DNA of 64,000 nt from Blastocatellia bacterium (lineage in GTDB: Bacteria > Acidobacteriota > Blastocatellia > UBA7656), in NCBI GenBank assembly GCA_963765495.1, contig CAVXWP010000008.1, forward strand, positions 832,001 to 896,000, in the 5' to 3' direction. Made by a program: the position numbers and the translations under genes. The notes below the pieces were generated by a model. The model did no database searches. It was not told the origin of the DNA and saw nothing but the letters and a program-made list of their open reading frames with translations. Below, one piece after another: positions 6,352 through 18,855 of the stretch (position 1 is its first letter; every line of letters starts with the position of its first letter).

Positions 6352-6726
6352 CTATCTGGGAACGGTCATAGACGGATTCCCCGGAGTGCATGTGCATCTG
6401 AATGTGGCAAAGCCGCAAGTTTGACCACCACTAATAGATGTATTGCACGTACCTGAATCGCATGTCGGCGAGCAGTTAGGTGCGCATCTGTTTTGGGCAA
6501 TCGTCATCGCGTTTATCCTGGCCTGAGTGCATGCCGCAGCGGCAGTACTGGAACAGGCCACACCGTTGGCTATAAATTGGTTGGGACAGGTTACAGCTTT
6601 AGCACGCCCAGGCAATGCAAGAGTCACAGCGCTACCGGCAACTGCGCCGAACATCAATTTGAGCGCCTGCCGCCTTGGAACCTGACTCGCTACGATACGA
6701 GATATTTTATCAAACAGCTCGGCCAT
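6352..6726 (-). CDS. Tat-signal, cysteine-rich small secreted protein (10 Cys in ~80 aa mature part)
   Basis: PRRQALK twin-arginine motif, hydrophobic stretch, AKA cleavage site; RBS aggaaaggag; overlaps the upstream gene. Confidence 0.8.
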   Translation of the reverse strand: MAELFDKISRIVASQVPRRQALKLMFGAVAGSAVTLALPGRAKAVTCPNQFIANGVACSSTAAAACTQARINAMTIAQNRCAPNCSPTCDSGTCNTSISGGQTCGFATFRCTCTPGNPSMTVPR

Positions 6727-7834
6727 TAACTTTCTCCTTTCCTACAGCCAGTCCTTCTCGAGCCAGCATTAAAATTTCCGCTGCCCCGGTTGCAACATCC
6801 CTTGCCAATATACCGTCTTCATTAATCAGAAAGGCGACGGGAGTGGCGAATATACCATACTCTTTTGACAACTTCCACTTTTGTTGAACAACAACAGGAA
6901 AATCAAAATGAAATTTTTCTGCCTTCTGCCGGTTCTGCTCCAGGTCGCCGCGCCCAACCATGACGATGACCATAGAGCTATCGCGCCGTTGAGCATATAG
7001 GCGAACCAGATCGGGCGCAAGCTGATCGCACGGGCCGCAATTCGGATCAGAAAAAACCAGTAACACACGCTTCCCCTTAAACTGTTCGAGAGTGACAGTG
7101 CCACCATCCAGATCAGGCAGTTCAAACCCGGGGGCGATTGTTCCAGCCTTGAGCCCGCTTCGCTCGATACGGCTCTCTTCGAGTGGGCGAAAACCCTTCA
7201 ACCCCTTCTTGTCGGATTTGCCCGAGGCCGCTTCGCGCGCCAGGTTCAAAACCTCGTCAGACCCTATCGCCAGAGGGCGGGATATCCTCCCCTTTTCATC
7301 GAGCAGATAGGCAACCGGAGTACCCAACTCCTGAAATGAACCGAGCGACTCAGACTCATCCATAAGGAGAATTGGACATTCAAGACCGTACTCTTCGGCA
7401 AATGAGCGATTTGAGGCCGCATCCTGATAACTCACCATCAACATCTGCACTTTGCGGTCGCTCAAAGCCGGTTGTAATTGAGCCAAATCCGGCCCAATCA
7501 GATCGCAAAATCCGCAAACGGGACTCCAGTGAATCAGCAGTACCTGTTTGCCTAGAAACCCCTCGAGCGACACCATCCTTCCGTCGAGATCAGGAAACTC
7601 AAAAGGGGTAAAACTTGTTCCTATCTCCAACCCCGATCTGGCGGATGACATACCCTCTAGCTGAACATTCGCAGTAAAGATGCCGGTATTTCCCTGTCCA
7701 AGCCTTTGCTCTATCTCATCTAAACGGAGCAATATCCGCCCCTGCTGCTTGATCATCTGGTAGAAAACAACCCACAGGCTCAATAAAATAAGCCCCAATA
7801 TAGCTACGCCGATTGCTAAAAGCCCCACATCCAT
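6710..7834 (-). CDS. Membrane-anchored tandem thioredoxin-fold (TlpA/MauD-like redoxin) protein
   Basis: N-terminal TM helix; two repeats of PxFxxPDLDG..V.LE.F.GK with CGFC and CGPC, each followed by a TP cis-Pro motif. Confidence 0.85.
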   Translation of the reverse strand: MDVGLLAIGVAILGLILLSLWVVFYQMIKQQGRILLRLDEIEQRLGQGNTGIFTANVQLEGMSSARSGLEIGTSFTPFEFPDLDGRMVSLEGFLGKQVLLIHWSPVCGFCDLIGPDLAQLQPALSDRKVQMLMVSYQDAASNRSFAEEYGLECPILLMDESESLGSFQELGTPVAYLLDEKGRISRPLAIGSDEVLNLAREAASGKSDKKGLKGFRPLEESRIERSGLKAGTIAPGFELPDLDGGTVTLEQFKGKRVLLVFSDPNCGPCDQLAPDLVRLYAQRRDSSMVIVMVGRGDLEQNRQKAEKFHFDFPVVVQQKWKLSKEYGIFATPVAFLINEDGILARDVATGAAEILMLAREGLAVGKEKVNGRAV

Positions 7835-8391: not shown

Positions 8392-8877
8392 ATGGCAGTA
8401 GCTGGAATACAGAGATCTCCAATGCGAGGTTATCGCAGTCTGAGAGGCATAGACCCTTTTCGGGAATTGTTCGACCTGCAACGAAACATCAATGAGTTAT
8501 TCGAGGGAAGCCTTGGAAAGACAACCGGGGAGAGCACGGCTCTAAATACCTGGACCCCGTCAGTAGACATATACGAGGATGAGAATTCATTTCTGATCAA
8601 GGTTGATCTGCCGGAGATCAACAAAGAGGATGTCAAGGTCAATCTCGATAATAACGTGCTGTCGATATCAGGCGAGCGAAGGCTGGAAAACGAAGACCGG
8701 CGCGAAGGCTATCACCGCGTTGAGCGCGTTTACGGCCAGTTCTATAGATCGTTCACTCTGCCGTCAAATGTCAATATTGAGTCGATAAACGCGGCGTTCA
8801 AGGATGGAGTGCTCCGTCTGAGGCTCCCAAAGAAAGAAGAAGCAAAACCGAAGCAGATCGAAGTCACAGTTGACTGA
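8392..8877 (+). CDS. Small heat shock protein, Hsp20/alpha-crystallin family
   Basis: WTPSVDIYE, DLP, LSISGER, ERVYGQFYRSFTLP, FKDGVLRLRLPK; RBS aggagg. Confidence 0.95.
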   Translation: MAVAGIQRSPMRGYRSLRGIDPFRELFDLQRNINELFEGSLGKTTGESTALNTWTPSVDIYEDENSFLIKVDLPEINKEDVKVNLDNNVLSISGERRLENEDRREGYHRVERVYGQFYRSFTLPSNVNIESINAAFKDGVLRLRLPKKEEAKPKQIEVTVD

Positions 8878-8926
8878 CGCGGTCTAAATCATTCAGATCG
8901 AAAAGTTTTCTCCCTCTTTGCGAATC

Positions 8927-8963
8927 AAGCCGCAGCGGACACATATGCGCTGCGGCTTTTCTT
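8927..8963 (+). terminator. Intrinsic terminator after hsp20
   Basis: aagccgcagcg-loop-cgctgcggctt followed by a T-rich tract. Confidence 0.8.
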
Positions 8964-9397
8964 TACAGGGCCTTACAATTCTCATATTGATCTGCTGCTG
9001 AGATCACAGGAAACCACCTATTGCTTTCAGGAAAAGCCTGGCGTCCTTTGAGTGCTTAGGGTACGCGGGCGGGTTTGCGAGAAACAGGTTCCAAAGCCGC
9101 TTAGCAGGCCAAGTATTTTTATCGAGTAATCAGTGATTGGCTCTGATCTCGGGAATATCAATCTGAGAATAGAATGAGACGTAAATGGCGGGCGATTTTA
9201 GTCTCTGCAATCGGGTGGTTTTCAACTTGTCAACCACATCCAACCTGTGTAAATGTAAGAGCAGACTCAGCCCGGTATTGCAGGTGTACTTATTCCCCCA
9301 CGGGCAATCGGTATTATTGATATTTGTTTGAAGATTCCGGCAGATGGGAGTATGTTCTATGCCCCCGAAAGGCAAAGATCAAAGCATAAGGAGCGAC

Positions 9398-9754
9398 ATG
9401 AAAAGTTCTGCGCAACTCGAGCGACGGCGGTTCGAGCGAGCGCCAATGACGGCGCAGGTCGAATACGAGCTTACAAACAGCAGCAGCGGCCCCTCTCGCG
9501 TTAGAAGGAACATGGCCAATATAAGCACCGGCGGACTGTTTATTTCCACAGACGAGCCTATTCGCGCAGGAACCCGCATGGTCGTGCGGTTTGAATTGCC
9601 CAACAAGCACAGGGTTATCGCCGTTTCGCGGGTCTGTTACACAAAAAAAGGGCAGGGGCTTGGCGTGGAGTTTTTGAGCCTAGATGATGAAGATCGCGAA
9701 GAGATTGAGACATATATTGCCATCCTTGCCGCAAAATCATTCTCGGGAATTTGA
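9398..9754 (+). CDS. Stand-alone PilZ-domain protein
   Basis: ERRRFER (RxxxR) and NISTGG (D/NxSxxG) motifs, GLGVEF; RBS aggag. Confidence 0.85.
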   Translation: MKSSAQLERRRFERAPMTAQVEYELTNSSSGPSRVRRNMANISTGGLFISTDEPIRAGTRMVVRFELPNKHRVIAVSRVCYTKKGQGLGVEFLSLDDEDREEIETYIAILAAKSFSGI

Positions 9755-9814
9755 CATCCAATGCATCAGATTTTTCAGGATGTGGCTCTTATTCGGTCAT
9801 CTTGAAAGATGGTC

Positions 9815-9842
9815 TTGTAAATCACATGCCCTGTGCTATAAT
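9815..9842 (+). promoter_or_regulatory. Sigma70-type promoter upstream of the SPOR gene
   Basis: TTGTAA-16 nt-TATAAT with extended -10 TG. Confidence 0.5.
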
Positions 9843-10007
9843 CGAACCGCCTAAGCTTCTGCCCCCCGTAAAAGGTGCCTTTTCAAGGACATCGATTGAA
9901 AACTCAGAAGATTGACCGGCTTGAAAAACGCTTGTGCCGTCTTCAGACCGGGCGCAGTAGCTTTCCATTGGATTTGACATTAAGTCACAGGTCAGAAGGG
10001 TACAGAC

Positions 10008-11117
10008 ATGAACACTGAGGCAAAATACCAGGTTTGCCCTTTATGCAAGACTCCTGCTTCGGTTGATAACCGCCTTGCTTCCACCCCTACCAGGTTGTGT
10101 GAAGAATGTAGGGCGCTTGTGTGCCGTATGCTCCCCGGAGCACATGTTCTGGCGGATTCGTCTACTCTCACTTTTTCGGATATCGAGCCTGCCGCAATCG
10201 GAATCACGGCCCACTCCGAAGATGTATCTGCCGATACGGACGAGCAACCACTTTTCCAGGAATACAATAATGAGGCCGAACCTGAGCCGATCTTTTACGC
10301 GAGCGAAGGGCCGCAAATAAGCCAGGATGAGACTGTCTCAAGCGATGTCTTCCGCACTCCGCCGGACGATCTTTCGCCGGTCGGGTACGGTCAGGGGGAG
10401 ACGGTCGAAAATTCTCCACTCCTCGACACTCAAACCGAGGCCGCCCGTTCCGACATGATTGTGACCGATCAAGCTCAAGGGGTTGACCCCTGGGAAGACC
10501 CGCTGCCTGCCTGGGATTATTCTCGCAATGAGTATCCGATCTTGTTAAACCCATCGTCGAAGTCAAAATCTGCCCGGGTCTGGATAGTAGGAGCGATCAT
10601 ATTGCTACTGGCTTTGATAGCCGTTGGCTATTCGCTGCTTTCCTACTCTGACAGCGGCGAAGAGACGACCCGGACGGCGGTCACACCCGATGATGCGAAA
10701 AATGCGCTGATCACTCACGCCGAAGTACAAAATACTCCTCAGCCCGAAGACACGGCTGCCGCTCATAAAGCGATGGCGACCCCGCCAGAGGGTGCTACTC
10801 AACCCGAAAACGCGAAAAATCCATCTGTAGAGACGGATCAAAAAGATATTTCTGCGAAGGGAAATTACTCTCTGCAGGCGATGTCCTCAAAGGATGAAAA
10901 AGAGGCAAACCAGCTTGCAGAGCGTTTGAAAACCGCTGGCGTTCCCGCCTACGTCACAAGCGCGGAGATCGGAACACGGGGAAGATGGTACAGGGTGCGT
11001 GTAGGTCGATTTGTCAGCCAGGAAGAAGCAAAACGGTTTGCCGCAGAGTATGAGACACGCGTAAAGTCCGGGAACGTAGGCGCCAAATTTATTATTTGTA
11101 ATTACGAGAAGCCTTAG
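10008..11117 (+). CDS. Bitopic SPOR-domain protein with N-terminal CxxC...CxxC motif (FtsN/DedD-like architecture)
   Basis: CPLC/CEEC, acidic linker, single TM, C-terminal YSLQ...A..L...L...G...WYRVRVGRF...EA SPOR signature. Confidence 0.85.
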   Translation: MNTEAKYQVCPLCKTPASVDNRLASTPTRLCEECRALVCRMLPGAHVLADSSTLTFSDIEPAAIGITAHSEDVSADTDEQPLFQEYNNEAEPEPIFYASEGPQISQDETVSSDVFRTPPDDLSPVGYGQGETVENSPLLDTQTEAARSDMIVTDQAQGVDPWEDPLPAWDYSRNEYPILLNPSSKSKSARVWIVGAIILLLALIAVGYSLLSYSDSGEETTRTAVTPDDAKNALITHAEVQNTPQPEDTAAAHKAMATPPEGATQPENAKNPSVETDQKDISAKGNYSLQAMSSKDEKEANQLAERLKTAGVPAYVTSAEIGTRGRWYRVRVGRFVSQEEAKRFAAEYETRVKSGNVGAKFIICNYEKP

Positions 11118-11143
11118 CCAGCGAGCATGAGGACTCTGAAGAG

Positions 11144-12481
11144 ATGTCCGAGTTCAAACCGCAGAACATCAGGTATGCAAAGCTCGTTGACCGGTATTCC
11201 AGATTTATAGAATCGCCGGTCCAGCGGCTGAAGTTTCTAAATAGCGCGTTGAAGGCAGAGCCGCCCTCCGGTTTGATGATGCGGATTCCACTGCTCGGGT
11301 CACTGCCTGAACGAATGAAGTTGATTGTCGAGCTATCGAGGGTTTTGCCGATAACCCAGCGAGCGCCACTCGCCTTTCGCCTGACTTCCCTGCTCTACAA
11401 AATCCGGTACGCGCTCTATGCTTTATGCGCGGTCTTTGCCATCTCAGCCTTCCTCGGACTGATTTACACGGGTTCAAGGCTTGTGAGCAGCCTTGCCAGC
11501 AGGACCGAGGCGCAGATAATACCGCCCGCAGAGTCGTCTCCCCTTGTCGGGCCGGATGGTGTGAAGGCGGTCGAGGCGATTGGGACAGAAGCGGGTATCA
11601 CTCTTGAAAAGGTCTGGCTTGCCGAATCGGGCGAGGGCTACGAGTTTTACAGCAACGGCGCTCGCGTGCTGACGGAGTTTGAAACCATCGGGCCTGAACG
11701 CAATTTCTACAGGTTCTCTTTACAGGCGCTCAATAAGGGGTCGGACGAAGCCGAAACGCTTTCAAAGCCTGTCGGGATACTCTATCACGTATCGGAAAGC
11801 GATCTGCTTCCGTTTGCCGATCATTACAACGCATCTTTGAAAACCAGATCACGCGCCCTGCTTGAATACGTGCGCGAAAACAGACTCTATAACTACCTCA
11901 TAGACAGGTTCGGAAGAACCTATCGCATCGTCGGAGACGAGTACACCGCCAACCACGCGGGCAATTCGGTCTGGAGCGACGGCGAGAGCGTTTATGTAAA
12001 CCTCAGCCCCAGCTTTATAGGAGTCTGTTTTGAAGGCCAGTCGAAAGCGGGCGAAGCACTGGGGGCCGACGGCATAAACGAAGCGCAGATATATGCGGCG
12101 CGGGTGCTGACGGCGGTCCTGCGCTCGCGGTACGCGATAGAAGATACAAACTGTGTGACTCACGGACTGGTCTCGGTAAATCCATCGAATAATTTGATGG
12201 GTTATCACACGGACTGGGTTTCGAATTTCCCATTCGAAGCTCTGGGCCTAAAAGACAAATACAAGTCTGAGCTTATAGCCATTTCTCATCTGGGGTTTGC
12301 TTACGATCAGGCATACATTCAGGCAGCAGGTGGGAAGAAATGGGAAGGATTGGATCAAGCAGATGCAAGACTTGAAGCCGCAGCGAAAGGCGAGGGCAAG
12401 ACGGTCGAACAGGAGCGTCGCGCTCAACAACAGATCTATCAACTCGTTTATAATAAAGAACGCGGGCTTGAAAGTAAGTGA
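11144..12481 (+). CDS. Membrane-anchored N-acetylmuramoyl-L-alanine amidase (Amidase_2 family)
   Basis: TM near aa 90-110; ILYH, YNYLIDRFG, ANHAG, IGVCFEG, Q..A...L, VTHG. Confidence 0.75.
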   Translation: MSEFKPQNIRYAKLVDRYSRFIESPVQRLKFLNSALKAEPPSGLMMRIPLLGSLPERMKLIVELSRVLPITQRAPLAFRLTSLLYKIRYALYALCAVFAISAFLGLIYTGSRLVSSLASRTEAQIIPPAESSPLVGPDGVKAVEAIGTEAGITLEKVWLAESGEGYEFYSNGARVLTEFETIGPERNFYRFSLQALNKGSDEAETLSKPVGILYHVSESDLLPFADHYNASLKTRSRALLEYVRENRLYNYLIDRFGRTYRIVGDEYTANHAGNSVWSDGESVYVNLSPSFIGVCFEGQSKAGEALGADGINEAQIYAARVLTAVLRSRYAIEDTNCVTHGLVSVNPSNNLMGYHTDWVSNFPFEALGLKDKYKSELIAISHLGFAYDQAYIQAAGGKKWEGLDQADARLEAAAKGEGKTVEQERRAQQQIYQLVYNKERGLESK

Positions 12482-12572
12482 TATGTGGTAAGTGATGCGT
12501 AATATAGAGGGCTTGCAGGTAGACTTTAACAGGCGGCCATCACGGATCACACATCACAAATCACGAATCACG
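12478..12572. repeat. Inverted heptamer arrays (GTGAT../..ATCAC)
   Basis: gtgatatgtg...gtgatgcgtaat ... atcacggatcacacatcacaaatcacgaatcac. Confidence 0.7.
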
Positions 12573-12579
12573 GTTTGTT

Positions 12580-13941
12580 ATGAACAAGAGGGATTTAATC
12601 AACGAGGCCGCAAGACGCACAGGACTATCGCGCCGGGCGGCTTCGCGCGGCGTACACTCAACGCTTGAGACGATCAAGAATGAGTTAAGTGCTGACAACG
12701 TCATCAATATACGCGGGCTGGGCCGCCTGTCCTTAAAACCGAAAAAGCAGGGCTTCTTGCCCGCCGCAGCAGCTGGGCTTCCCCCGAAACCGATTCCGGC
12801 AGGCAAGGCTGTTAGATTGAAGGCAACTCGACACATAGTTGCGAGCCTGAACACCGAGCCCCTCAAGCTCGAATTGAACGAGAGAAATTTTGGAGGAGAA
12901 ATGAACAAGAAAGAAGAGAAAGAAAACGCAAATGATGAGGCCGCGAAGAGTGAAGGCTCGGCCCTGGGTCTCGATGTAGGAACCAGCCGCCTGGTGCTGG
13001 CAAACGGTCAGGCAGACAAGATCAATACCCGTACCGAGCTGAACGCGTTTATCACGGTTCCCTACTCGAAGTTTACCGAAAACATACTCAAACAAAACAA
13101 GGTCACCTATCAACTCAACGGCAATCAGCGCCTGCAAATTTACGGTAACGAAGCCGAACGCTTCGCAAGCTTCTTCAACTCGGAAGTCCACCGCCCGATG
13201 CTCAACGGCACGATAAACCCCAAAGAGGAGTATTCACTCTCCGTCATGCAGGCCATCGTTCAACAACTGCTGAAGAAGAGCAAAAACGACGACAATCTGG
13301 TCTTCAGCGTGCCCGGCCCGCTGCGCGAATCGGGTTCGACCGATCTGGTCTATCACGAGGCCATGCTCAAAGATCTATTTCAGGGCATGGGCTATAATGC
13401 CAGAGCGATCAACGAAGGACTGGCCGTCGTTTTTGCCGAGCTTGAACAAGAGAATTTCAGCGGCATTGGCGTTAGCTGCGGCGGCGGCATGTGCAATGTC
13501 TGTCTGGCTTTCATGTCCATACCCGTGACGACATACTCCATAGCCAAAGCGGGCGACTACATAGATCAGAGCGTGGCATCTGTGACGGGTGAGGTGGCCA
13601 CTCGAATCCGCGTCATCAAGGAAGAGAGTCTCGATCTTTCGCGCCAGCCCAGGGACAAATACGAGGGGGCGCTGCACGTCTACTATGACAATGTGATCGT
13701 TTCGCTTGTTGAATCGCTCAGAAACTCGCTTGCAGAGACAAAGAATCTGCCTCGAATCGAGAAGGCTATTCCCATAGTTCTAAGTGGCGGAACGGCAAAG
13801 CCCAAAGGCTTTCTCGATAAGTTCCGCCAGACGCTTGAACGCGACGGATTCCCTCTCGCGATTTCAGAGGTTCGTATGGCCGAAGAGCCTTTGACCGCGA
13901 CTGCCCGTGGGTGCCTTCTCGCGGCGATGTATGACGCTTAG
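12580..13941 (+). CDS. HU/IHF-like domain fused in frame to an actin-fold ATPase (volactin-like); strong internal start at 12901
   Basis: MNKRDLI...GLS...INIRGLGRL HU pattern for aa 1-91; GLDVGT (phosphate 1), SCGGG (phosphate 2), LSGGTA (adenosine), EPLTATARG; GGAGGAG before ATG 12901. Confidence 0.8.
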   Translation: MNKRDLINEAARRTGLSRRAASRGVHSTLETIKNELSADNVINIRGLGRLSLKPKKQGFLPAAAAGLPPKPIPAGKAVRLKATRHIVASLNTEPLKLELNERNFGGEMNKKEEKENANDEAAKSEGSALGLDVGTSRLVLANGQADKINTRTELNAFITVPYSKFTENILKQNKVTYQLNGNQRLQIYGNEAERFASFFNSEVHRPMLNGTINPKEEYSLSVMQAIVQQLLKKSKNDDNLVFSVPGPLRESGSTDLVYHEAMLKDLFQGMGYNARAINEGLAVVFAELEQENFSGIGVSCGGGMCNVCLAFMSIPVTTYSIAKAGDYIDQSVASVTGEVATRIRVIKEESLDLSRQPRDKYEGALHVYYDNVIVSLVESLRNSLAETKNLPRIEKAIPIVLSGGTAKPKGFLDKFRQTLERDGFPLAISEVRMAEEPLTATARGCLLAAMYDA

Positions 13942-14082
13942 CGCCGGACTCGAAAGATAACCGACGGTCGCCAGTCTCTATAACAGGTTCTCGCAACGAA
14001 TTTGTAATCATGCTGGCGAACCCTTCCCTGGCCTCGAATCATCCTACAGGGCGAGGTCATAAAAAGTGTTCTCCTTTTGTTG

Positions 14083-14116
14083 AAAGCCTCGATTTTTCGG
14101 GGCTTTTTTATTTTTT
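14083..14116 (+). terminator. Intrinsic terminator downstream of the actin-like gene
   Basis: aaagcctcga-ttt-tcggggcttt followed by a long T tract. Confidence 0.7.
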
Positions 14117-14180
14117 GAGCCTTGTGGTGCGGAGAGCTTGCGAGTTTGGAGTTTACGATCAGAAGAGGAAGGAATTTGTT

Positions 14181-14486
14181 TTGAGCATTATAGACCGCAG
14201 ACGTTTCAGGCGAATTGCCTTGCTTAGGCCTGTCACTTACCTGAACGTCACAAACCCGGAACCGGCGAGTCGGCTACTCGATATTAGCCCGGGCGGAGCT
14301 TACATCGAATATCCCGTGGCGAACGAGGGCAGCGTAGTTGAAATGGAGTTCGCTCTGACCCCCGGACATAGAATTAAAGTAACGGCCCTGATTCGTTATG
14401 TTGTCCCCGACAAAGGTATGGGGGTCGAGTTTATAAGCATCGACGACAGAGACATGAATTTGATTGCAGAACTCGTAGGAGCCTGA
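14181..14486 (+). CDS. Stand-alone PilZ-domain protein
   Basis: DRRRFRR and DISPGG motifs, GMGVEF; TTG start after purine-rich gaggaagg. Confidence 0.82.
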   Translation: MSIIDRRRFRRIALLRPVTYLNVTNPEPASRLLDISPGGAYIEYPVANEGSVVEMEFALTPGHRIKVTALIRYVVPDKGMGVEFISIDDRDMNLIAELVGA

Positions 14487-14603
14487 CGAGACGAACTGGC
14501 CCTGTTGGCCCGGAGGGCTGCGCTTTGAATAGAAGCGCGTTAGATGATAGAATGAGAGGGCAACAACAACAAGCAAATACACTATTAACCTGGGAGTAAT
14601 GAT

Positions 14604-15329
14604 ATGAAAGTATGTCCAGAGTGTAACGAATCTTTTGCAGACGACTTCAAGTTTTGCGATCTGGATGGCGCGCGGCTGAACCGCGACGGCGTCTCTTCCA
14701 TTCGCGACCCGAATAAATTATGGTCAATGCTTGGAGTAGGATTGCTGCTTGGAGCGCTCGTCATTTCGGCTATAACCATATTCTCACTACCCAGAGCAGA
14801 AATTTCCCCGGCAACGTCATCTACGCCGCCAGCGCCGATTTCGAATCCAAACGCGAGCGCAAGCGCCGAGCCCTCTTCCACGGAACAGGCTGTCGATTCA
14901 AACACCGATTCTCAGATGCTCGCCGAAGATACGACTTTGGTCGAGCCTAAGAAAGAAAAGGTCGTACCCAATACTATAGACGAGAATGCCAACACCGCCT
15001 CGAAGTCTCCGAAAGCCGCCGCAATGGAAGAGGAAGAGAAAGAGAAGGCCCTCGACCCGAGCAATGATCCGGCCCTTGTTCCTCCCGTGCCGAAAAAACC
15101 TCAACCATCCACCGATGTGAAGACCGTGAGCGATACGCGAGATTCCGATGCGAAGTCGGGTGATCCGACAGCCGATGCCAAGAAGGACGACAGACGCGAA
15201 TCAGCCAGGATGAAGGCCGACGCAAAAGATGCGGCCAGCAAGAAAAAAGATGATGACAAGAAAGACAAGAAGAAGAAAGGCGGGTTCCTTCGCGTCTTCA
15301 AGAAAATCTTCGGCAAAGATGATAATTAA
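14604..15329 (+). CDS. Zinc-ribbon-like single-pass membrane protein with long low-complexity charged tail
   Basis: MKVCPEC...KFCDLDG, TM helix, Pro/Ser/Asp/Lys-rich region, amphipathic end GGFLRVFKKIFG. Confidence 0.75.
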   Translation: MKVCPECNESFADDFKFCDLDGARLNRDGVSSIRDPNKLWSMLGVGLLLGALVISAITIFSLPRAEISPATSSTPPAPISNPNASASAEPSSTEQAVDSNTDSQMLAEDTTLVEPKKEKVVPNTIDENANTASKSPKAAAMEEEEKEKALDPSNDPALVPPVPKKPQPSTDVKTVSDTRDSDAKSGDPTADAKKDDRRESARMKADAKDAASKKKDDDKKDKKKKGGFLRVFKKIFGKDDN

Positions 15330-15361
15330 AACAAGAACTCAGACAAAATTTCCAGACACGC

Positions 15362-15389
15362 AAAAGCCTCTCGGTGAGAGGCTTTTTTG
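15362..15389 (+). terminator. Intrinsic terminator
   Basis: aaaagcctctc-ggt-gagaggctttttt. Confidence 0.85.
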
Positions 15390-15552
15390 ATTGCCGAAAT
15401 CTGACTCCAGACCGGGAATTGCCTCTATCCTCACGCCCTGCTTCTTTGCGACTGTCATTCGGGTTTACAGATGGCTTCGGTAAAGTTATAACCATGTAGG
15501 CGAGTAAAGATTCGCCCGGTCTTTTCCCTTTTCAATTTAGAGGTAATTATTT

Positions 15553-17022
15553 ATGCAGATGCCACGCACTATCGGCGAGTTGAGAAGCAGCGAATTCAGT
15601 CCCGCGCGGCTTTCAAAACGCTCGATCAAAGACGAGATGCGCGAAAATCTCATAGCCAGACTCCGGCTGGGCGAAAAGATATTTCCCGGCATCGTCGGTT
15701 ATGACGATACGGTCACACCTCAGATTATAAACGCCCTGCTGTCGCGTCATAACTTTATCCTGCTCGGGCTTCGCGGTCAGGCCAAGAGCCGCATACTGCG
15801 CGAGCTTGTGAATCTGCTTGATGAAGCGATTCCCGTGATCGAAGGATGCGAGATAAACGATAACCCTTATGCGCCTATCTGCAAAGCGTGCCGGTTAAAG
15901 CTCGAATCCACAGGCGATGATACGCCCGTCACGTTTATCCCACGCCAGATGAGGTATGTCGAGAAGCTCGCTACCCCGGATGTGACCATCGCCGATTTGA
16001 TAGGCGATCTCGATCCTATCAAGGCGGCGCGGGGAGGACATCTGCTTTCCGATGAATTGACTATTCATTACGGGTTGCTACCGCGAGCCAATCGCGGCAT
16101 TTTCGCTATCAACGAGCTGCCTGACCTTGCCGGTAAAGTTCAGGTAGGGCTTTTCAACATCATGCAGGAAGGCGATGTTCAGATAAAAGGCTACCCCATA
16201 AGGATGCCGCTCGATCTGGTGCTTGTATTTTCGGCCAACCCGGAAGACTACACCGCTCGCGGCAAGATCATCACTCCGCTCAAGGATCGAATCGGCTCTG
16301 AGATCAGCACCCATTATCCGGCGACTGTTGAAGAAGGAATCGAGATAACTCGTCAGGAGGCGTGGCTTGGGCGCGACACCGAAAAGATAAACCTGCCCGA
16401 GTTTATAATGCGTGTTGTCGAGCAGATCGCCTTTGAAGCGCGCTCGGATCAGCGGGTGGACAAGCGGTCCGGCGTGAGTCAGAGGCTCCCAATTTCGGTG
16501 TTAGAAAACGTGGTTTCAAATGCCGAGCGAAGAAGACTCATCACCGAAGAACCCGCGATAGTGCCTCGCATCAGCGACATATATGCCGCGTTGCCCTCGA
16601 TTACGGGAAAGCTCGAACTCGAATATGAAGGCGAGCAACACGGCGCAACGGCGGTCGCCCGCGAATTGATAAAGACCGCCGTTGGAAAGACGTTTGAAGA
16701 TTATTTTGATCATATAGATTGCTCGAAGGTTATCACGTGGTTCAACGACGGCGGGACGCTCCAGGTGAGCGATCTGGACAGTTCCGACCTTTGCTTAAAA
16801 TCCTTTCGCCGCGTCGATGGATTGCTGAGCGCGGCGGCCCAATCCGGTCTTTCCGACAAATCCCAGCCTGCGCTTATGGTCTCTGTCTGCGAGATGATCC
16901 TTGAAGGTCTACACGCGCAAAAAAAGATCAGCCGCAGCGAGGAGCGCGGCTACGCGGCGGCAAGGCAGGAGACTCGCAGCCGCACATACGACAGCTTTAA
17001 TCGCTCGCGAAGAATAAATTGA
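15553..17022 (+). CDS. Mg-chelatase/MoxR-related AAA+ ATPase
   Basis: Variant Walker A GLRGQAKS, Walker B IFAINE, ANPEDYT, PLKDRIG; paired with downstream VWA gene. Confidence 0.85.
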   Translation: MQMPRTIGELRSSEFSPARLSKRSIKDEMRENLIARLRLGEKIFPGIVGYDDTVTPQIINALLSRHNFILLGLRGQAKSRILRELVNLLDEAIPVIEGCEINDNPYAPICKACRLKLESTGDDTPVTFIPRQMRYVEKLATPDVTIADLIGDLDPIKAARGGHLLSDELTIHYGLLPRANRGIFAINELPDLAGKVQVGLFNIMQEGDVQIKGYPIRMPLDLVLVFSANPEDYTARGKIITPLKDRIGSEISTHYPATVEEGIEITRQEAWLGRDTEKINLPEFIMRVVEQIAFEARSDQRVDKRSGVSQRLPISVLENVVSNAERRRLITEEPAIVPRISDIYAALPSITGKLELEYEGEQHGATAVARELIKTAVGKTFEDYFDHIDCSKVITWFNDGGTLQVSDLDSSDLCLKSFRRVDGLLSAAAQSGLSDKSQPALMVSVCEMILEGLHAQKKISRSEERGYAAARQETRSRTYDSFNRSRRIN

Positions 17023-17053
17023 ACCTATACCTGAAAAGAAAGGAAGCACCAGA

Positions 17054-17461
17054 ATGCCGATAGCCTGGCACGCACCATATGAGATGCTGAAACCCGAAAC
17101 CCGTGACATGTCACGGGCTATCCACTCGCTCATGGAAGAGCTTGAGGCGATGGATTGGTACTCTCAGCGAATGGATGTGACCGATGACGATGAATTACGC
17201 CGTCTCCTCGGTCATAACGCCAAGGAAGAGAAAGAGCACGCCGCTATGCTGCTTGAATGGATTCGACGCCGTGACCCTCAATGGGACGTGTATCTGCGAA
17301 CCTATCTATTCTCTTCGGGCGACCTGTTGACTGTAGAAGAACGAGCAACAGACGGAGGTGATTCGCCCTCACCCCAACAATCTGAGCCGCCCTCTTCAAG
17401 CCCGGTTCCCGAATCGGCGAGACACGCATTCACGGTCGGCAGTCTGCGATCAAGAAAATGA
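17054..17461 (+). CDS. Encapsulin-associated ferritin-like protein (EncFtn) with C-terminal cargo-loading peptide
   Basis: RAIHSLMEELEAMDWYSQR...HNAKEEKEHAAMLLEWIRRRDP ferroxidase pattern; Pro/Ser linker; FTVGSLR terminus. Confidence 0.9.
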   Translation: MPIAWHAPYEMLKPETRDMSRAIHSLMEELEAMDWYSQRMDVTDDDELRRLLGHNAKEEKEHAAMLLEWIRRRDPQWDVYLRTYLFSSGDLLTVEERATDGGDSPSPQQSEPPSSSPVPESARHAFTVGSLRSRK

Positions 17462-17575
17462 TGAGTGATTCGTGATTCGTGATTCGTGACTTTGAGTCAG
17501 GTCGCCTGTTGATGAAATTCGGCAAGCCTGCCGGATCACGAATCACGCATTACGCATCACTCCCGCATCACGGAT
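17458..17575. repeat. Inverted heptamer arrays (GTGATTC/GAATCAC)
   Basis: gtgattcgtgattcgtgattcgtgac ... atcacgaatcacgcattacgcatcac. Confidence 0.8.
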
Positions 17576-17598
17576 CTCGCTTCAAATAGTGAATCATC

Positions 17599-18855
17599 AT
17601 GGCTTATACGAAGTATTCAAAATGGGAAGGCATAGACTGGGAATCGTTCCGTCTCGAAGACCTGCTTGAACGGCTCGCAGATTTTCTTCTTCAGAGCGGA
17701 TATGAGGACTACTATTCTCGTTATTGGAACGACCGCGAGAATTCGCTTGAATCGCTGCGCGAACAGATTATGCGGGCGCTCCTGGAAGGGGGCCTGCTGT
17801 CGGAAGAGGAGATCGCGCAGATGAGCGATGCGGACGGGCGGTTGAATGCCAAACGTATGCAAGAGCTTGTGGATCGTTTGATCGAACGGCTCATCGAAGA
17901 AGGCTATCTCACATTGAGCGAAGAATCGCAACCTCAGAAAACAGGCCCGACCTCCGAGGGCGGGCAGGTAGGCCGTGGCGCCGAGTCAAGCATCAAGTTC
18001 GAGCTTACCGATAAAGGGCTTGATTTTCTCGGCTACAAGACTCTAAAGGAATTGATAGCCTCGCTCGGCAAATCTTCATTTGGTCGTCACGATACCAACT
18101 ATCTTTCAACCGGAATTGAAGCGAATGAGGTCTCGCGCCGGTACGAGTTTGGCGACACGCTGAACCTCGACGTGAATGCCACATTGAAATCGGCTATTCA
18201 ACGCGAGGGTCTGGGTGTCCCGCTTAATCTTGAATACTCCGATTTGATGGTACATCAGACAGAGTATCAAAGCTCCTGCGCCACCGTTCTGATGCTCGAT
18301 TGCTCGCATTCGATGATCCTCTATGGAGAAGACCGCTTTACGCCTGCAAAGCGCGTCTCGCTCGCTCTGACACATTTGATCAGGACTCAGTTTCCCGGCG
18401 ATTCACTTCGCGTAGTCCTTTTTCACGATTCAGCCGAAGAGATACCTCTTTCTACGCTTGCGCGCGCTCAGGTAGGCCCTTATCACACGAACACGCGTGA
18501 GGGACTTAGACTGGCTCGCCGCATCCTTATGTCGCAACGTAAAGACATGCGACAGATCATCATGATAACCGACGGGAAACCTTCGGCCCTCACCCTTGAA
18601 GACGGACATATCTACAAGAACTCAATGGGGCTGGACCCGCAAATCCTGCAAGAGACATTCAAAGAAGTAGCCTTGTGCCGCCGCAGCGGGATTATGATAA
18701 ATACCTTCATGCTGGCCGATGATTACTATCTGGTTGATTTTGTAAGGAAAGTCACTGAAATCTGTCGAGGCAAGGCTTATTTCACGACCACTCTCACGCT
18801 TGGCCAGTACATTTTGATGGACTACGTTCGAAGACGCACAAGAGAGATACACTGA
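17599..18855 (+). CDS. VWA-domain protein, partner of the AAA+ ATPase
   Basis: [22 protein letters not shown]. Confidence 0.88.

Follow-up and report, generated by a model that had tools for sequence, protein, structure and literature searches.

A volactin-family actin and a membrane-anchored Amidase_2 protein encoded side by side in Acidobacteriota and Desulfobacterota

The actin and the amidase of the Blastocatellia locus

The window analyzed here is a stretch of 64,000 nucleotides (nt) from the genome of a Blastocatellia bacterium (Acidobacteriota; GenBank assembly GCA_963765495.1, contig CAVXWP010000008.1, positions 832,001 to 896,000), and this study concerns a gene cluster at its positions 9398-15329. 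An open reading frame (ORF) listing and a Pfam scan identified six ORFs in this region, all on the plus strand, encoding a stand-alone PilZ protein (PilZ1), a SPOR-domain protein, an amidase, an actin fused to an HU domain, a second stand-alone PilZ protein (PilZ2) and a zinc-ribbon membrane protein (Table 1). Two of these proteins, the actin and the amidase, have stayed paired through inheritance in Acidobacteriota and Desulfobacterota even where the order of their genes has changed, and, in a sample of 401 Acidobacteriota genomes, the amidase family was confined to genomes that also bear the actin.

Amino acids (aa) 129-449 of the actin match the Pfam family Volactin (PF25216) over profile positions 3-321 of 321 (2.7e-76, 257.6 bits against a cut-off of 35), and a genome-wide profile search returned this gene as the only PF25216 member of the genome. 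The actin fails the MreB models of Pfam (MreB_Mbl, 25.2 bits; cut-off 27) and NCBIfam (PRK13927, 21.1 bits with a cut-off of 293; TIGR00904, 16.6 bits with a cut-off of 365.75), and gives a weak, sub-threshold match to the NCBIfam MamK model NF040964 (39.9 bits; cut-off 400). The window is on contig C8, and the two genuine MreB genes of the genome (495.9 and 356.3 bits) are on others, C2 and C16. On these grounds, the earlier identification of the protein as a non-MreB actin is correct. In the predicted model of the actin core, the predicted local distance difference test (pLDDT) value is mostly 75-94, and the nearest structures found by Foldseek are those of MreB (the best, E = 1.7e-14), MamK (5ljw and 5ljv) and BeeR. 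The nucleotide-binding motifs (D132, G134, T135, G301-G303 and G403-G404) are invariant in an alignment of 15 sequences. Among the 1897 proteins matching at E ≤ 1e-20 in the bacterial branch searched, the named top matches were all labeled "hypothetical protein", save one (P0207), labeled "actin-related protein".

The N-terminal part of the protein matches the Pfam family Bac_DNA_binding (PF00216) at aa 1-58 (3.8e-9, 37.1 bits against a cut-off of 22.4), and HU chains from the PDB align with aa 1-78 (chain residues 1-82 of 90, E = 1.1e-4). In the arm region, a proline residue aligns with the HU arm proline, but the segment is rich in Ala and Pro, and pLDDT falls below 50 over aa 36-125. The match of this domain to HU-CCDC81_bac_2 is weak (0.0006; 20.1 bits, under the cut-off of 35).

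Homologues of the actin core were also present in collections of mobile elements. Five matches of about 34% identity over 98% of the length were found in the plasmid collection, on haloarchaeal megaplasmids, with no close relative among them. In the phage collection, two uncultured records, LR756511.1 (595 kb) and LR745208.1 (485 kb), carry homologues 33% identical over 98%. A phage or plasmid origin of the actin was considered and dropped, these distant matches being the only ones obtained.

The amidase matches the Pfam family Amidase_2 (PF01510; 3.7e-12, 47.2 bits against a cut-off of 26). Its predicted layout comprises a helical cytoplasmic N-terminus (aa 1-88), a transmembrane segment (TM; about aa 90-108), a variable linker and a periplasmic domain with a helical C-terminal part. 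In an alignment of 16 partner amidases, the N-terminal 88 residues or so are conserved, with P25, L29, Y85 and R88 invariant, and in this window the conserved cytoplasmic motif reads KLVDRYSRFIESPVQRLKFLNSAL. A profile built on this N-terminal part retrieves partner amidases only, including weak matches at the N-termini of the most divergent of them, and a protein atlas searched with the same part yielded no usable match. The periplasmic part is well conserved too: H215, E297 and H340 are invariant in all 16 proteins, and so are H355 and D357. The predicted model of the amidase (mean pLDDT 67) matches AmpD (2.5e-5), AmpDh2, AmiD, peptidoglycan recognition proteins (PGRPs) and T7 lysozyme in Foldseek, and the profile of the amidase family matches AmiD at 4e-6, in an alignment that pairs H340 and E297 with a His and a Glu conserved in AmiD. 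H215 was placed at the first motif of the family by means of a more canonical homologue, L157. The zinc ligands of such enzymes are two His residues and a Cys or Asp residue, with a Glu as the catalytic residue. As the third ligand is off the usual spacing, amidase activity of the periplasmic domain is plausible but not assured. A predicted complex of the actin core (aa 120-453) with aa 1-90 of the amidase scored 0.77, and one unrelated control scored 0.81, so that the prediction speaks neither for nor against binding.

Linkage of the two genes across genomes

A genome search, limited to one genome per species, yielded 37 actin loci, many of them from close relatives. The amidase gene adjoins the actin gene in 36 of these loci, and the sole exception (L033) is a contig of 2210 nt that ends just past the actin. 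The actin is HU-fused in 25 of the 37 loci. The remaining 12 loci encode the actin core only and have the amidase downstream rather than upstream; they come from Desulfobacterales, Vicinamibacteria, Marinacidobacterales and one unclassified bacterium (placed in the phylum of the Desulfobacteraceae genome). When the ORFs were clustered, the actin and amidase clusters alone were common to the Blastocatellia loci and the distant loci.

The 401 Acidobacteriota genomes, sampled evenly, were screened for the actin and for the amidase family. The actin was found in 14 genomes and the amidase family in 11, all of them among the 14, and the two genes adjoin each other in each of the 11 double-positive genomes (one pair is divergent, 1.5 kb apart). 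A reverse search starting from the amidase found the actin in 62 of 80 metagenome loci, corresponding to 62 of the 64 that could be assessed: in 16 of the 18 misses, less than 400 nt of sequence lies downstream of the amidase, leaving L116 and L157 as true misses. The amidase gene lies upstream of the actin gene in Blastocatellia, downstream in Desulfobacterales and Vicinamibacteria, and is divergent in L057 and L159. In a maximum likelihood tree rooted with the MreB sequences of the genome, the amidase-linked actins form one clade (49 rows plus L033) with an SH-aLRT (Shimodaira-Hasegawa-like approximate likelihood ratio test) support of 95.

At least 550 relatives were found in a further search. 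Some loci show features of their own. In L027 (6865-8927) and L032 (6467-8927), from Vicinamibacteria and Marinacidobacterales, two tandem actin paralogues precede the amidase, one of them with a basic N-terminal tail. Locus L002 (CAZJQQ010000008.1) is titled "uncultured Clostridia bacterium"; a genome from the family of the window has the identical actin core, and the locus carries the whole PilZ-SPOR-amidase-actin block, for which reasons its taxonomic label is probably wrong.

SPOR and PilZ genes and the other features of the locus

The SPOR protein is an addition seen in Blastocatellia and in related loci from metagenomes. Its gene stands before that of the amidase in 22 of the 23 HU-type loci that could be assessed, and the SPOR-amidase-actin order also occurs in two loci of the same class with neither HU nor PilZ (L078 and L079), as well as in many metagenome loci that lack HU. 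In the window, its periplasmic SPOR domain (aa 283-347; Pfam SPOR, 3.4e-15, 56.6 bits against a cut-off of 21) follows a TM at about aa 193-211, and a cytoplasmic zinc ribbon of the form CPLC-x19-CEEC can be read in the translation. Of the 58 complete SPOR frames beside the module, 54 retain this CxxC...CxxC ribbon, though the linker diverges. The score obtained with the FtsN equivalog model TIGR02223 (23.2 bits) is below its cut-off of 107.65.

The HU fusion and the upstream PilZ gene are confined to a narrower subgroup. Of the 21 genome loci with an HU-actin that could be assessed, 20 retain PilZ1, as do 21 of 24 comparable metagenome loci; no other lineage has it, nor do L078 and L079, which carry the SPOR gene. 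No PilZ gene of any kind was found near the module in L078, L079, Vicinamibacteria, Desulfobacterales or the HU-less metagenome loci, except for a weak match in L032, about 4.4 kb away and on the opposite strand. The amidase-linked actins lacking HU have short N-terminal extensions, mostly acidic or mixed, and basic only in Desulfobacterales and in one Vicinamibacteria paralogue; the idea of a DNA-binding N-terminus common to all amidase-linked actins was rejected for this reason.

PilZ1 matches the Pfam family PilZ at 5.7e-17 as the long ORF and at 3.7e-17 (63.0 bits against a cut-off of 22.5) when translated from ATG 9398, a start that is preceded by the ribosome-binding site (RBS) AAGGAG and agrees with that of the first-pass annotation of this DNA; its motifs are RRFER and NISTGG. 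The values for PilZ2, with motifs RRRFR and DISPGG, are 4.8e-13 for the long ORF and 51.6 bits against the same cut-off of 22.5 from the TTG start. Both translations thus contain the RxxxR and D/NxSxxG motifs ascribed to them. These two genes, both less than 6 kb from the actin gene, are the two best-scoring of the 15 PilZ matches in the 7.3-Mb genome. On contigs C10 (161077-162097) and C11 (333-1353) of genome G000, two pairs of PilZ matches have identical scores, which looks like a contig-end repeat or an assembly duplication.

Within the 25 related loci, PilZ2 orthologues were found in 6, and homologues of the zinc-ribbon membrane protein, downstream of the actin, in 14. This last protein has an N-terminal motif resembling a zinc ribbon (CPEC...FCDLDG) and a TM at about aa 42-60, and a long stretch of it is of low complexity, with many Pro, Ser, Ala and Lys residues. 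None of the 25 loci has hsp20, the upstream neighbor in the window, and the conserved block therefore starts, at its upstream end, with PilZ1. Downstream, the AAA, EncFtn and VWA genes are syntenic in 11 of the 25, from which it follows that synteny at such depth is weak evidence of shared function.

Table 1. Features of the cluster, with coordinates in the window
Feature	Coordinates	Strand	Description
PilZ1	9398..9754 (longer ORF from 9344)	+	stand-alone PilZ, 118 aa from ATG 9398
Sigma-70-like promoter match	9815..9842	+	upstream of SPOR gene; pattern match only
SPOR protein	10008..11117	+	zinc ribbon, acidic linker, one TM, SPOR domain
Amidase	11144..12481	+	bitopic Amidase_2/PGRP-fold protein
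HU-fused actin	12580..13941	+	HU/IHF-like domain, low-complexity linker, Volactin-family core
Terminator-like hairpin and T run	14082..14107	+	pattern match only
PilZ2	14181..14486 (long ORF 14010-14486)	+	stand-alone PilZ, 101 aa from revised TTG
Zinc-ribbon membrane protein	14604..15329	+	one TM, low-complexity; no Pfam family

The first-pass annotation had described six co-oriented genes with gaps of 26 nt between the SPOR and amidase genes (11117/11144) and of 98 nt between the amidase and actin genes (12481/12580), a promoter at 9815, a terminator at 14083, and no mreC, mreD or fts gene nearby. The genes and their spacing were found as described, no mre or fts gene occurs between positions 6710 and 18855 of the window, and both signals were recovered as pattern matches. 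The promoter-like site, TTGTAA-16-TATAAT with a TG element, has 10 of 12 consensus matches, and the hairpin, 140 nt past the stop codon of the actin gene, has an 11-bp stem with five GC pairs followed by TTATTTTTTG. Neither class of signal was in excess in the region, with 7 promoter-like sites against 4.7 ± 2.6 in shuffled sequences and 9 terminator-like sites against 8.7 ± 3.1. The hairpin falls within the long PilZ2 ORF. The true start of PilZ2 is most likely TTG 14181, which is 3' of the hairpin and stands behind the RBS GAGGAAGGA; the resulting protein of 101 aa retains the PilZ domain at 1.3e-13. An annotation based on the longest ORF would lengthen PilZ2 by 57 codons (14010-14180), through the hairpin.

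The SPOR protein, the amidase and the zinc-ribbon membrane protein have a single hydrophobic segment apiece, and K and R residues are more numerous on the N-terminal flank of that segment, which fits cytoplasmic N-termini for all three, including the cytoplasmic N-terminal domains previously proposed for the SPOR protein and the amidase. Among the remaining ORFs of the region 8392-18855, Pfam identified Hsp20, a weak, sub-cut-off Sigma54_activat match (AAA-type), an EncFtn-like protein and VWA_2. The last three lie 3' of the module, at 15553-18855, and correspond to an AAA-type ATPase-like gene, the EncFtn-like gene (1.6e-36) and the VWA gene. A minus-strand gene at 6710-7834 encodes a protein of 374 aa with an N-terminal hydrophobic segment and two halves that we label thioredoxin-like from motifs in the translation (WSPVCGFC and DPNCGPC).

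The first-pass annotation named, as grounds for its refutation, a lack of recurring association between homologues of the actin gene and SPOR, amidase or PilZ genes. The amidase recurs beside the actin across two phyla and the SPOR gene in Blastocatellia and related metagenome loci, which supports the central part of that annotation, but the PilZ association is limited to the HU subgroup. A single unit of six genes is not supported: PilZ1 occurs only with the HU fusion, PilZ2 and the zinc-ribbon membrane protein accompany the block in a minority and in just over half of the related loci, respectively, and PilZ2 lies behind the hairpin. As the PilZ genes are variable, or absent outside the HU subgroup, control by cyclic di-GMP (c-di-GMP) is a possibility for this lineage and no property of the whole system.

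A possible actin-guided wall hydrolase, its alternatives and its relatives

The core of the system consists of two genes, those of the volactin-family actin and the bitopic Amidase_2 protein, and we consider it moderately probable that the actin filament steers wall cutting through the cytoplasmic part of the amidase. The actin would polymerize at the inner face of the membrane and bind the cytoplasmic motif of the amidase, KLVDRYSRFIESPVQRLKFLNSAL, thereby setting where, or whether, peptide stems are cut off the glycan strands. In Blastocatellia, the zinc-ribbon-TM-SPOR protein, encoded immediately upstream, would bind the denuded glycans left by the amidase, and this binding would hold or reinforce the complex at the cut site, in an FtsN-like manner. 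The HU domain may serve as a nucleoid tether and PilZ1 as a c-di-GMP input; HU, PilZ1, PilZ2 and the zinc-ribbon membrane protein would all be later additions of sub-lineages. The genome also holds three Amidase_3 genes and three other SPOR genes, in addition to its two MreB genes, and for this reason the module would be an extra, specialized wall-remodeling device rather than the main elongation or division machinery.

Several observations weigh against an actin-guided amidase. The third zinc ligand is off the canonical spacing after H340, the candidate being the invariant D357 (or H355), and hydrolytic activity is consequently not assured; relatives of the amidase are labeled "peptidoglycan recognition family protein" by NCBI. 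The locus counts exaggerate the number of independent events, many loci being those of close relatives, and the actin tree came from a quick IQ-TREE search. The filaments of archaeal volactin are described, in the available part of the source, as touching the membrane by their tips only, with ParM-like dynamics, unlike a membrane-hugging guide of the MreB type (PMC10869688). The actin also occurs without the amidase, in 3 of the 14 actin-positive Acidobacteriota genomes and, in a sample of 401 Desulfobacterota genomes, without an adjacent amidase in 9 of the 11 actin-positive ones (the other two have it), so that an amidase partner is no general feature of the actin family.

These sister actins fall, in the quick tree, in a clade separate from that of the amidase-linked actins. 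Seven of the nine amidase-less Desulfobacterota loci were viewed with wider flanks: two consist of the actin, a small ORF and a class A penicillin-binding protein (PBP), four adjoin an HrpA-type helicase, and one has nothing notable. In one of the three amidase-less Acidobacteriota loci, the actin is immediately followed by a class A PBP. The class A PBP (Transgly plus Transpeptidase) follows the sister actin directly in L056 (5771-9409), and in L074 (1863-5409) and L077 (6805-10188) an unassigned ORF of 130 and 147 aa, respectively, lies between the two. Sister actin and class A PBP may be a second pairing of an actin with a peptidoglycan enzyme, independent of the first. With two branches of the actin family beside different peptidoglycan enzymes, the link to the cell wall is strengthened and the partner appears exchangeable. 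A shared adaptor domain in the PBP-linked and other sister loci was considered and dropped, the N-terminal profile of the amidase having found none there. In L071, L072, L073 and L075, where the actin lies at about 7-8.3 kb, the sister actin adjoins an HrpA-type helicase with DUF3418, in divergent orientation in L072, L073 and L075; this neighborhood may be plain synteny among relatives.

The main rival explanation is that the Amidase_2-like domain is a non-catalytic peptidoglycan foot, comparable to non-catalytic PGRPs, that fixes the ends of the filament, the real work being intracellular, in positioning or partitioning the nucleoid or another cargo, with HU gripping DNA in Blastocatellia. 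The fusion of HU to the actin, the non-canonical spacing of the third zinc ligand and the recognition-type label of the relatives all suit such an arrangement. So do volactin filaments, reported, in the available part of the source, to bridge the cytoplasm with their tips at the membrane, together with the role of salactin in aiding DNA partitioning (PMC10869688), and the HU-TM-SPOR/LysM proteins of Bacteroidetes, for which the accessible text proposes wall anchoring with an intracellular HU (PMC5499826), the same parts being split here over several proteins. However, HU is limited to one subgroup and the N-termini of the other amidase-linked actins are short and mostly acidic or mixed, so DNA binding cannot be the common function. 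H215, E297 and H340 are, moreover, invariant in all 16 partners, and non-catalytic PGRPs usually lose catalytic-type residues of this kind. SPOR domains bind denuded glycans, a substrate that requires an active amidase nearby, which also counts against a mere foot. We regard this explanation as rather unlikely. It is highly improbable that the protein acts instead as a sensor from the outside in, with the PGRP-like domain perceiving muropeptides or the state of the wall and the cytoplasmic N-terminus nucleating or capping the actin filament, such that wall damage or growth state controls the scaffold. The protein is indeed bitopic, its cytoplasmic and periplasmic domains are both conserved, and the PGRP fold serves as a receptor in animals, but no signaling domain is present, the catalytic-type residues are conserved, and amidase activity is a simpler explanation for the pairing with SPOR.

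The full reading of the first-pass annotation, in which all six genes form one c-di-GMP-responsive system for morphogenesis, budding or division, the two PilZ proteins switching actin, amidase and SPOR, is distinctly unlikely. The retention of both c-di-GMP-binding-type motifs in each PilZ protein, the position of the two best PilZ genes of the genome within 6 kb of the actin, and the near-constant presence of PilZ1 in the HU-type loci, from which hsp20 is always missing, argue for it. Against it stand the lack of PilZ beside the module in other lineages (the weak L032 match apart), the scattered occurrence of PilZ2 (6/25), itself located after the hairpin, and of the zinc-ribbon membrane protein (14/25), and the synteny (11/25) of the AAA, EncFtn and VWA genes as well. 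That actin and amidase have no functional link at all, and owe their proximity to inherited synteny or to a mobile element, such as a phage endolysin beside a segregation actin, is hardly credible. Many loci do belong to Blastocatellia closely related to one another, the Amidase_2 fold is common among endolysins, and two very large uncultured-phage records contain actin homologues. Nevertheless, the pair persists in two phyla and in three gene arrangements while all other neighbors change, its presence and absence are strictly linked in the 401 genomes, the actin gene is single-copy in a stable chromosomal context, and neither the phage nor the haloarchaeal plasmid matches are closely related to it.

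The actin-guided amidase can be compared with several known systems. Volactin (VolA) of Haloferax volcanii belongs to the same Pfam family and is likewise an actin additional to the main shape system; it has been linked to cell shape, in the rod-to-disk transition, and forms dynamic filaments, and the available part of the paper treats the archaeal protein alone and names no partner protein (PMC10869688). The actin of the window differs in being bacterial, in being paired with a peptidoglycan amidase, haloarchaea having no murein, and in its fusion to HU in the lineage of the window. By analogy of parts, the nearest worked-out system is that of the bactofilin BacA and the bitopic M23 endopeptidase LmdC of Hyphomonas neptunium and Rhodospirillum rubrum, which, according to the accessible text, form a conserved module with local effects on wall growth (PMC10945521). 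In both cases, the gene of a polymer is clustered across taxa with that of a membrane-anchored peptidoglycan hydrolase, and the hydrolase has a conserved cytoplasmic motif, which in LmdC is reported, again in the part of the source available, to be needed for recruitment (PMC10945521). Here, however, the polymer is an ATP-dependent actin and the hydrolase is an Amidase_2 protein, which would cut stem peptides from N-acetylmuramic acid, rather than an M23 endopeptidase; and binding has been shown for BacA and LmdC, whereas we infer it for the actin and the amidase.

In the divisome of Escherichia coli, an actin-fold protein at the inner face of the membrane acts with a bitopic SPOR protein whose cytoplasmic N-terminus is short, and amidases make the denuded glycans to which SPOR binds. 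The SPOR protein of the window resembles this FtsA-FtsN-AmiA/B/C loop in its FtsN-like layout of cytoplasmic N-terminus, TM, linker and SPOR domain. The actin is not FtsA, however, the SPOR protein scores far under the FtsN equivalog cut-off, and the amidase is a membrane-anchored Amidase_2 protein rather than a soluble Amidase_3 activated by EnvC or NlpD. MreB with RodZ offers the nearest fold and the concept of a bitopic partner joining a cytoplasmic actin to periplasmic wall enzymes, but the actin fails the MreB models, there is no mreC, mreD or rodZ nearby, and the partner is a hydrolase, not a synthase. The fold is also MamK-like, although the score is below the NF040964 cut-off and there are no magnetosome genes.

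Two further comparisons concern relatives of single parts. Bbp ("big bacteria protein"), found in cable bacteria among other large bacteria, is an actin clade located between MamK and MreB, described, in the available part of the source, from Desulfobacterota, where it is present besides MreB, and from Gammaproteobacteria (PMC10580974). Compared by description only, the Desulfobacterota sister clade may be the Bbp family, and Bbp perhaps belongs to the same Pfam family. Instead of an amidase, that part of the paper reports a Kelch-like protein and a hypothetical protein as the neighbors of Bbp (PMC10580974). The HU-TM-SPOR/LysM proteins of the HU-CCDC81 clade in Bacteroidetes likewise combine an intracellular HU with a wall-side SPOR domain, which the accessible text reads as an HU-peptidoglycan anchor (PMC5499826); in the window, by contrast, HU and SPOR are on separate proteins of one cluster together with actin and amidase, and the HU-CCDC81 model is below its cut-off. 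The accessible main text of that paper does not mention actin, the only matches to the word being in "actinobacteria" (PMC5499826). A literature search on volactin, actin-like proteins, amidases, SPOR and Acidobacteria found no description of an actin-amidase module, and one on Blastocatella and budding yielded nothing of use, budding in this class being left aside as evidence.

The pairing of actin and amidase is a new version of a known theme, that of a cytoskeleton coupled to a wall enzyme. Few such couplings have been worked out (MreB and the elongasome, FtsA/FtsZ and the divisome, bactofilin and LmdC), and an actin paired with an amidase would add a new one, from a family of which only an archaeal member has been studied. 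Being compact, with clear parts, the module is directly testable. Its carriers are abundant and poorly understood soil Acidobacteria and sulfate reducers, and one locus, from a metagenome-assembled genome titled Desulforapulum autotrophicum, is a possible experimental entry point, this species being culturable. We raise, tentatively and as a doubtful rather than a probable extension, the idea of a third actin-based wall machine beside the MreB elongasome and the FtsA divisome, in which a volactin filament would directly grasp the cytoplasmic tail of an amidase, or of a class A PBP in sister clades, and so pattern the wall cuts, while in Blastocatellia HU would grip the nucleoid and SPOR would read the cut wall. 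If this were true, a single device would tie the position of the chromosome to the splitting of the wall and to c-di-GMP state.

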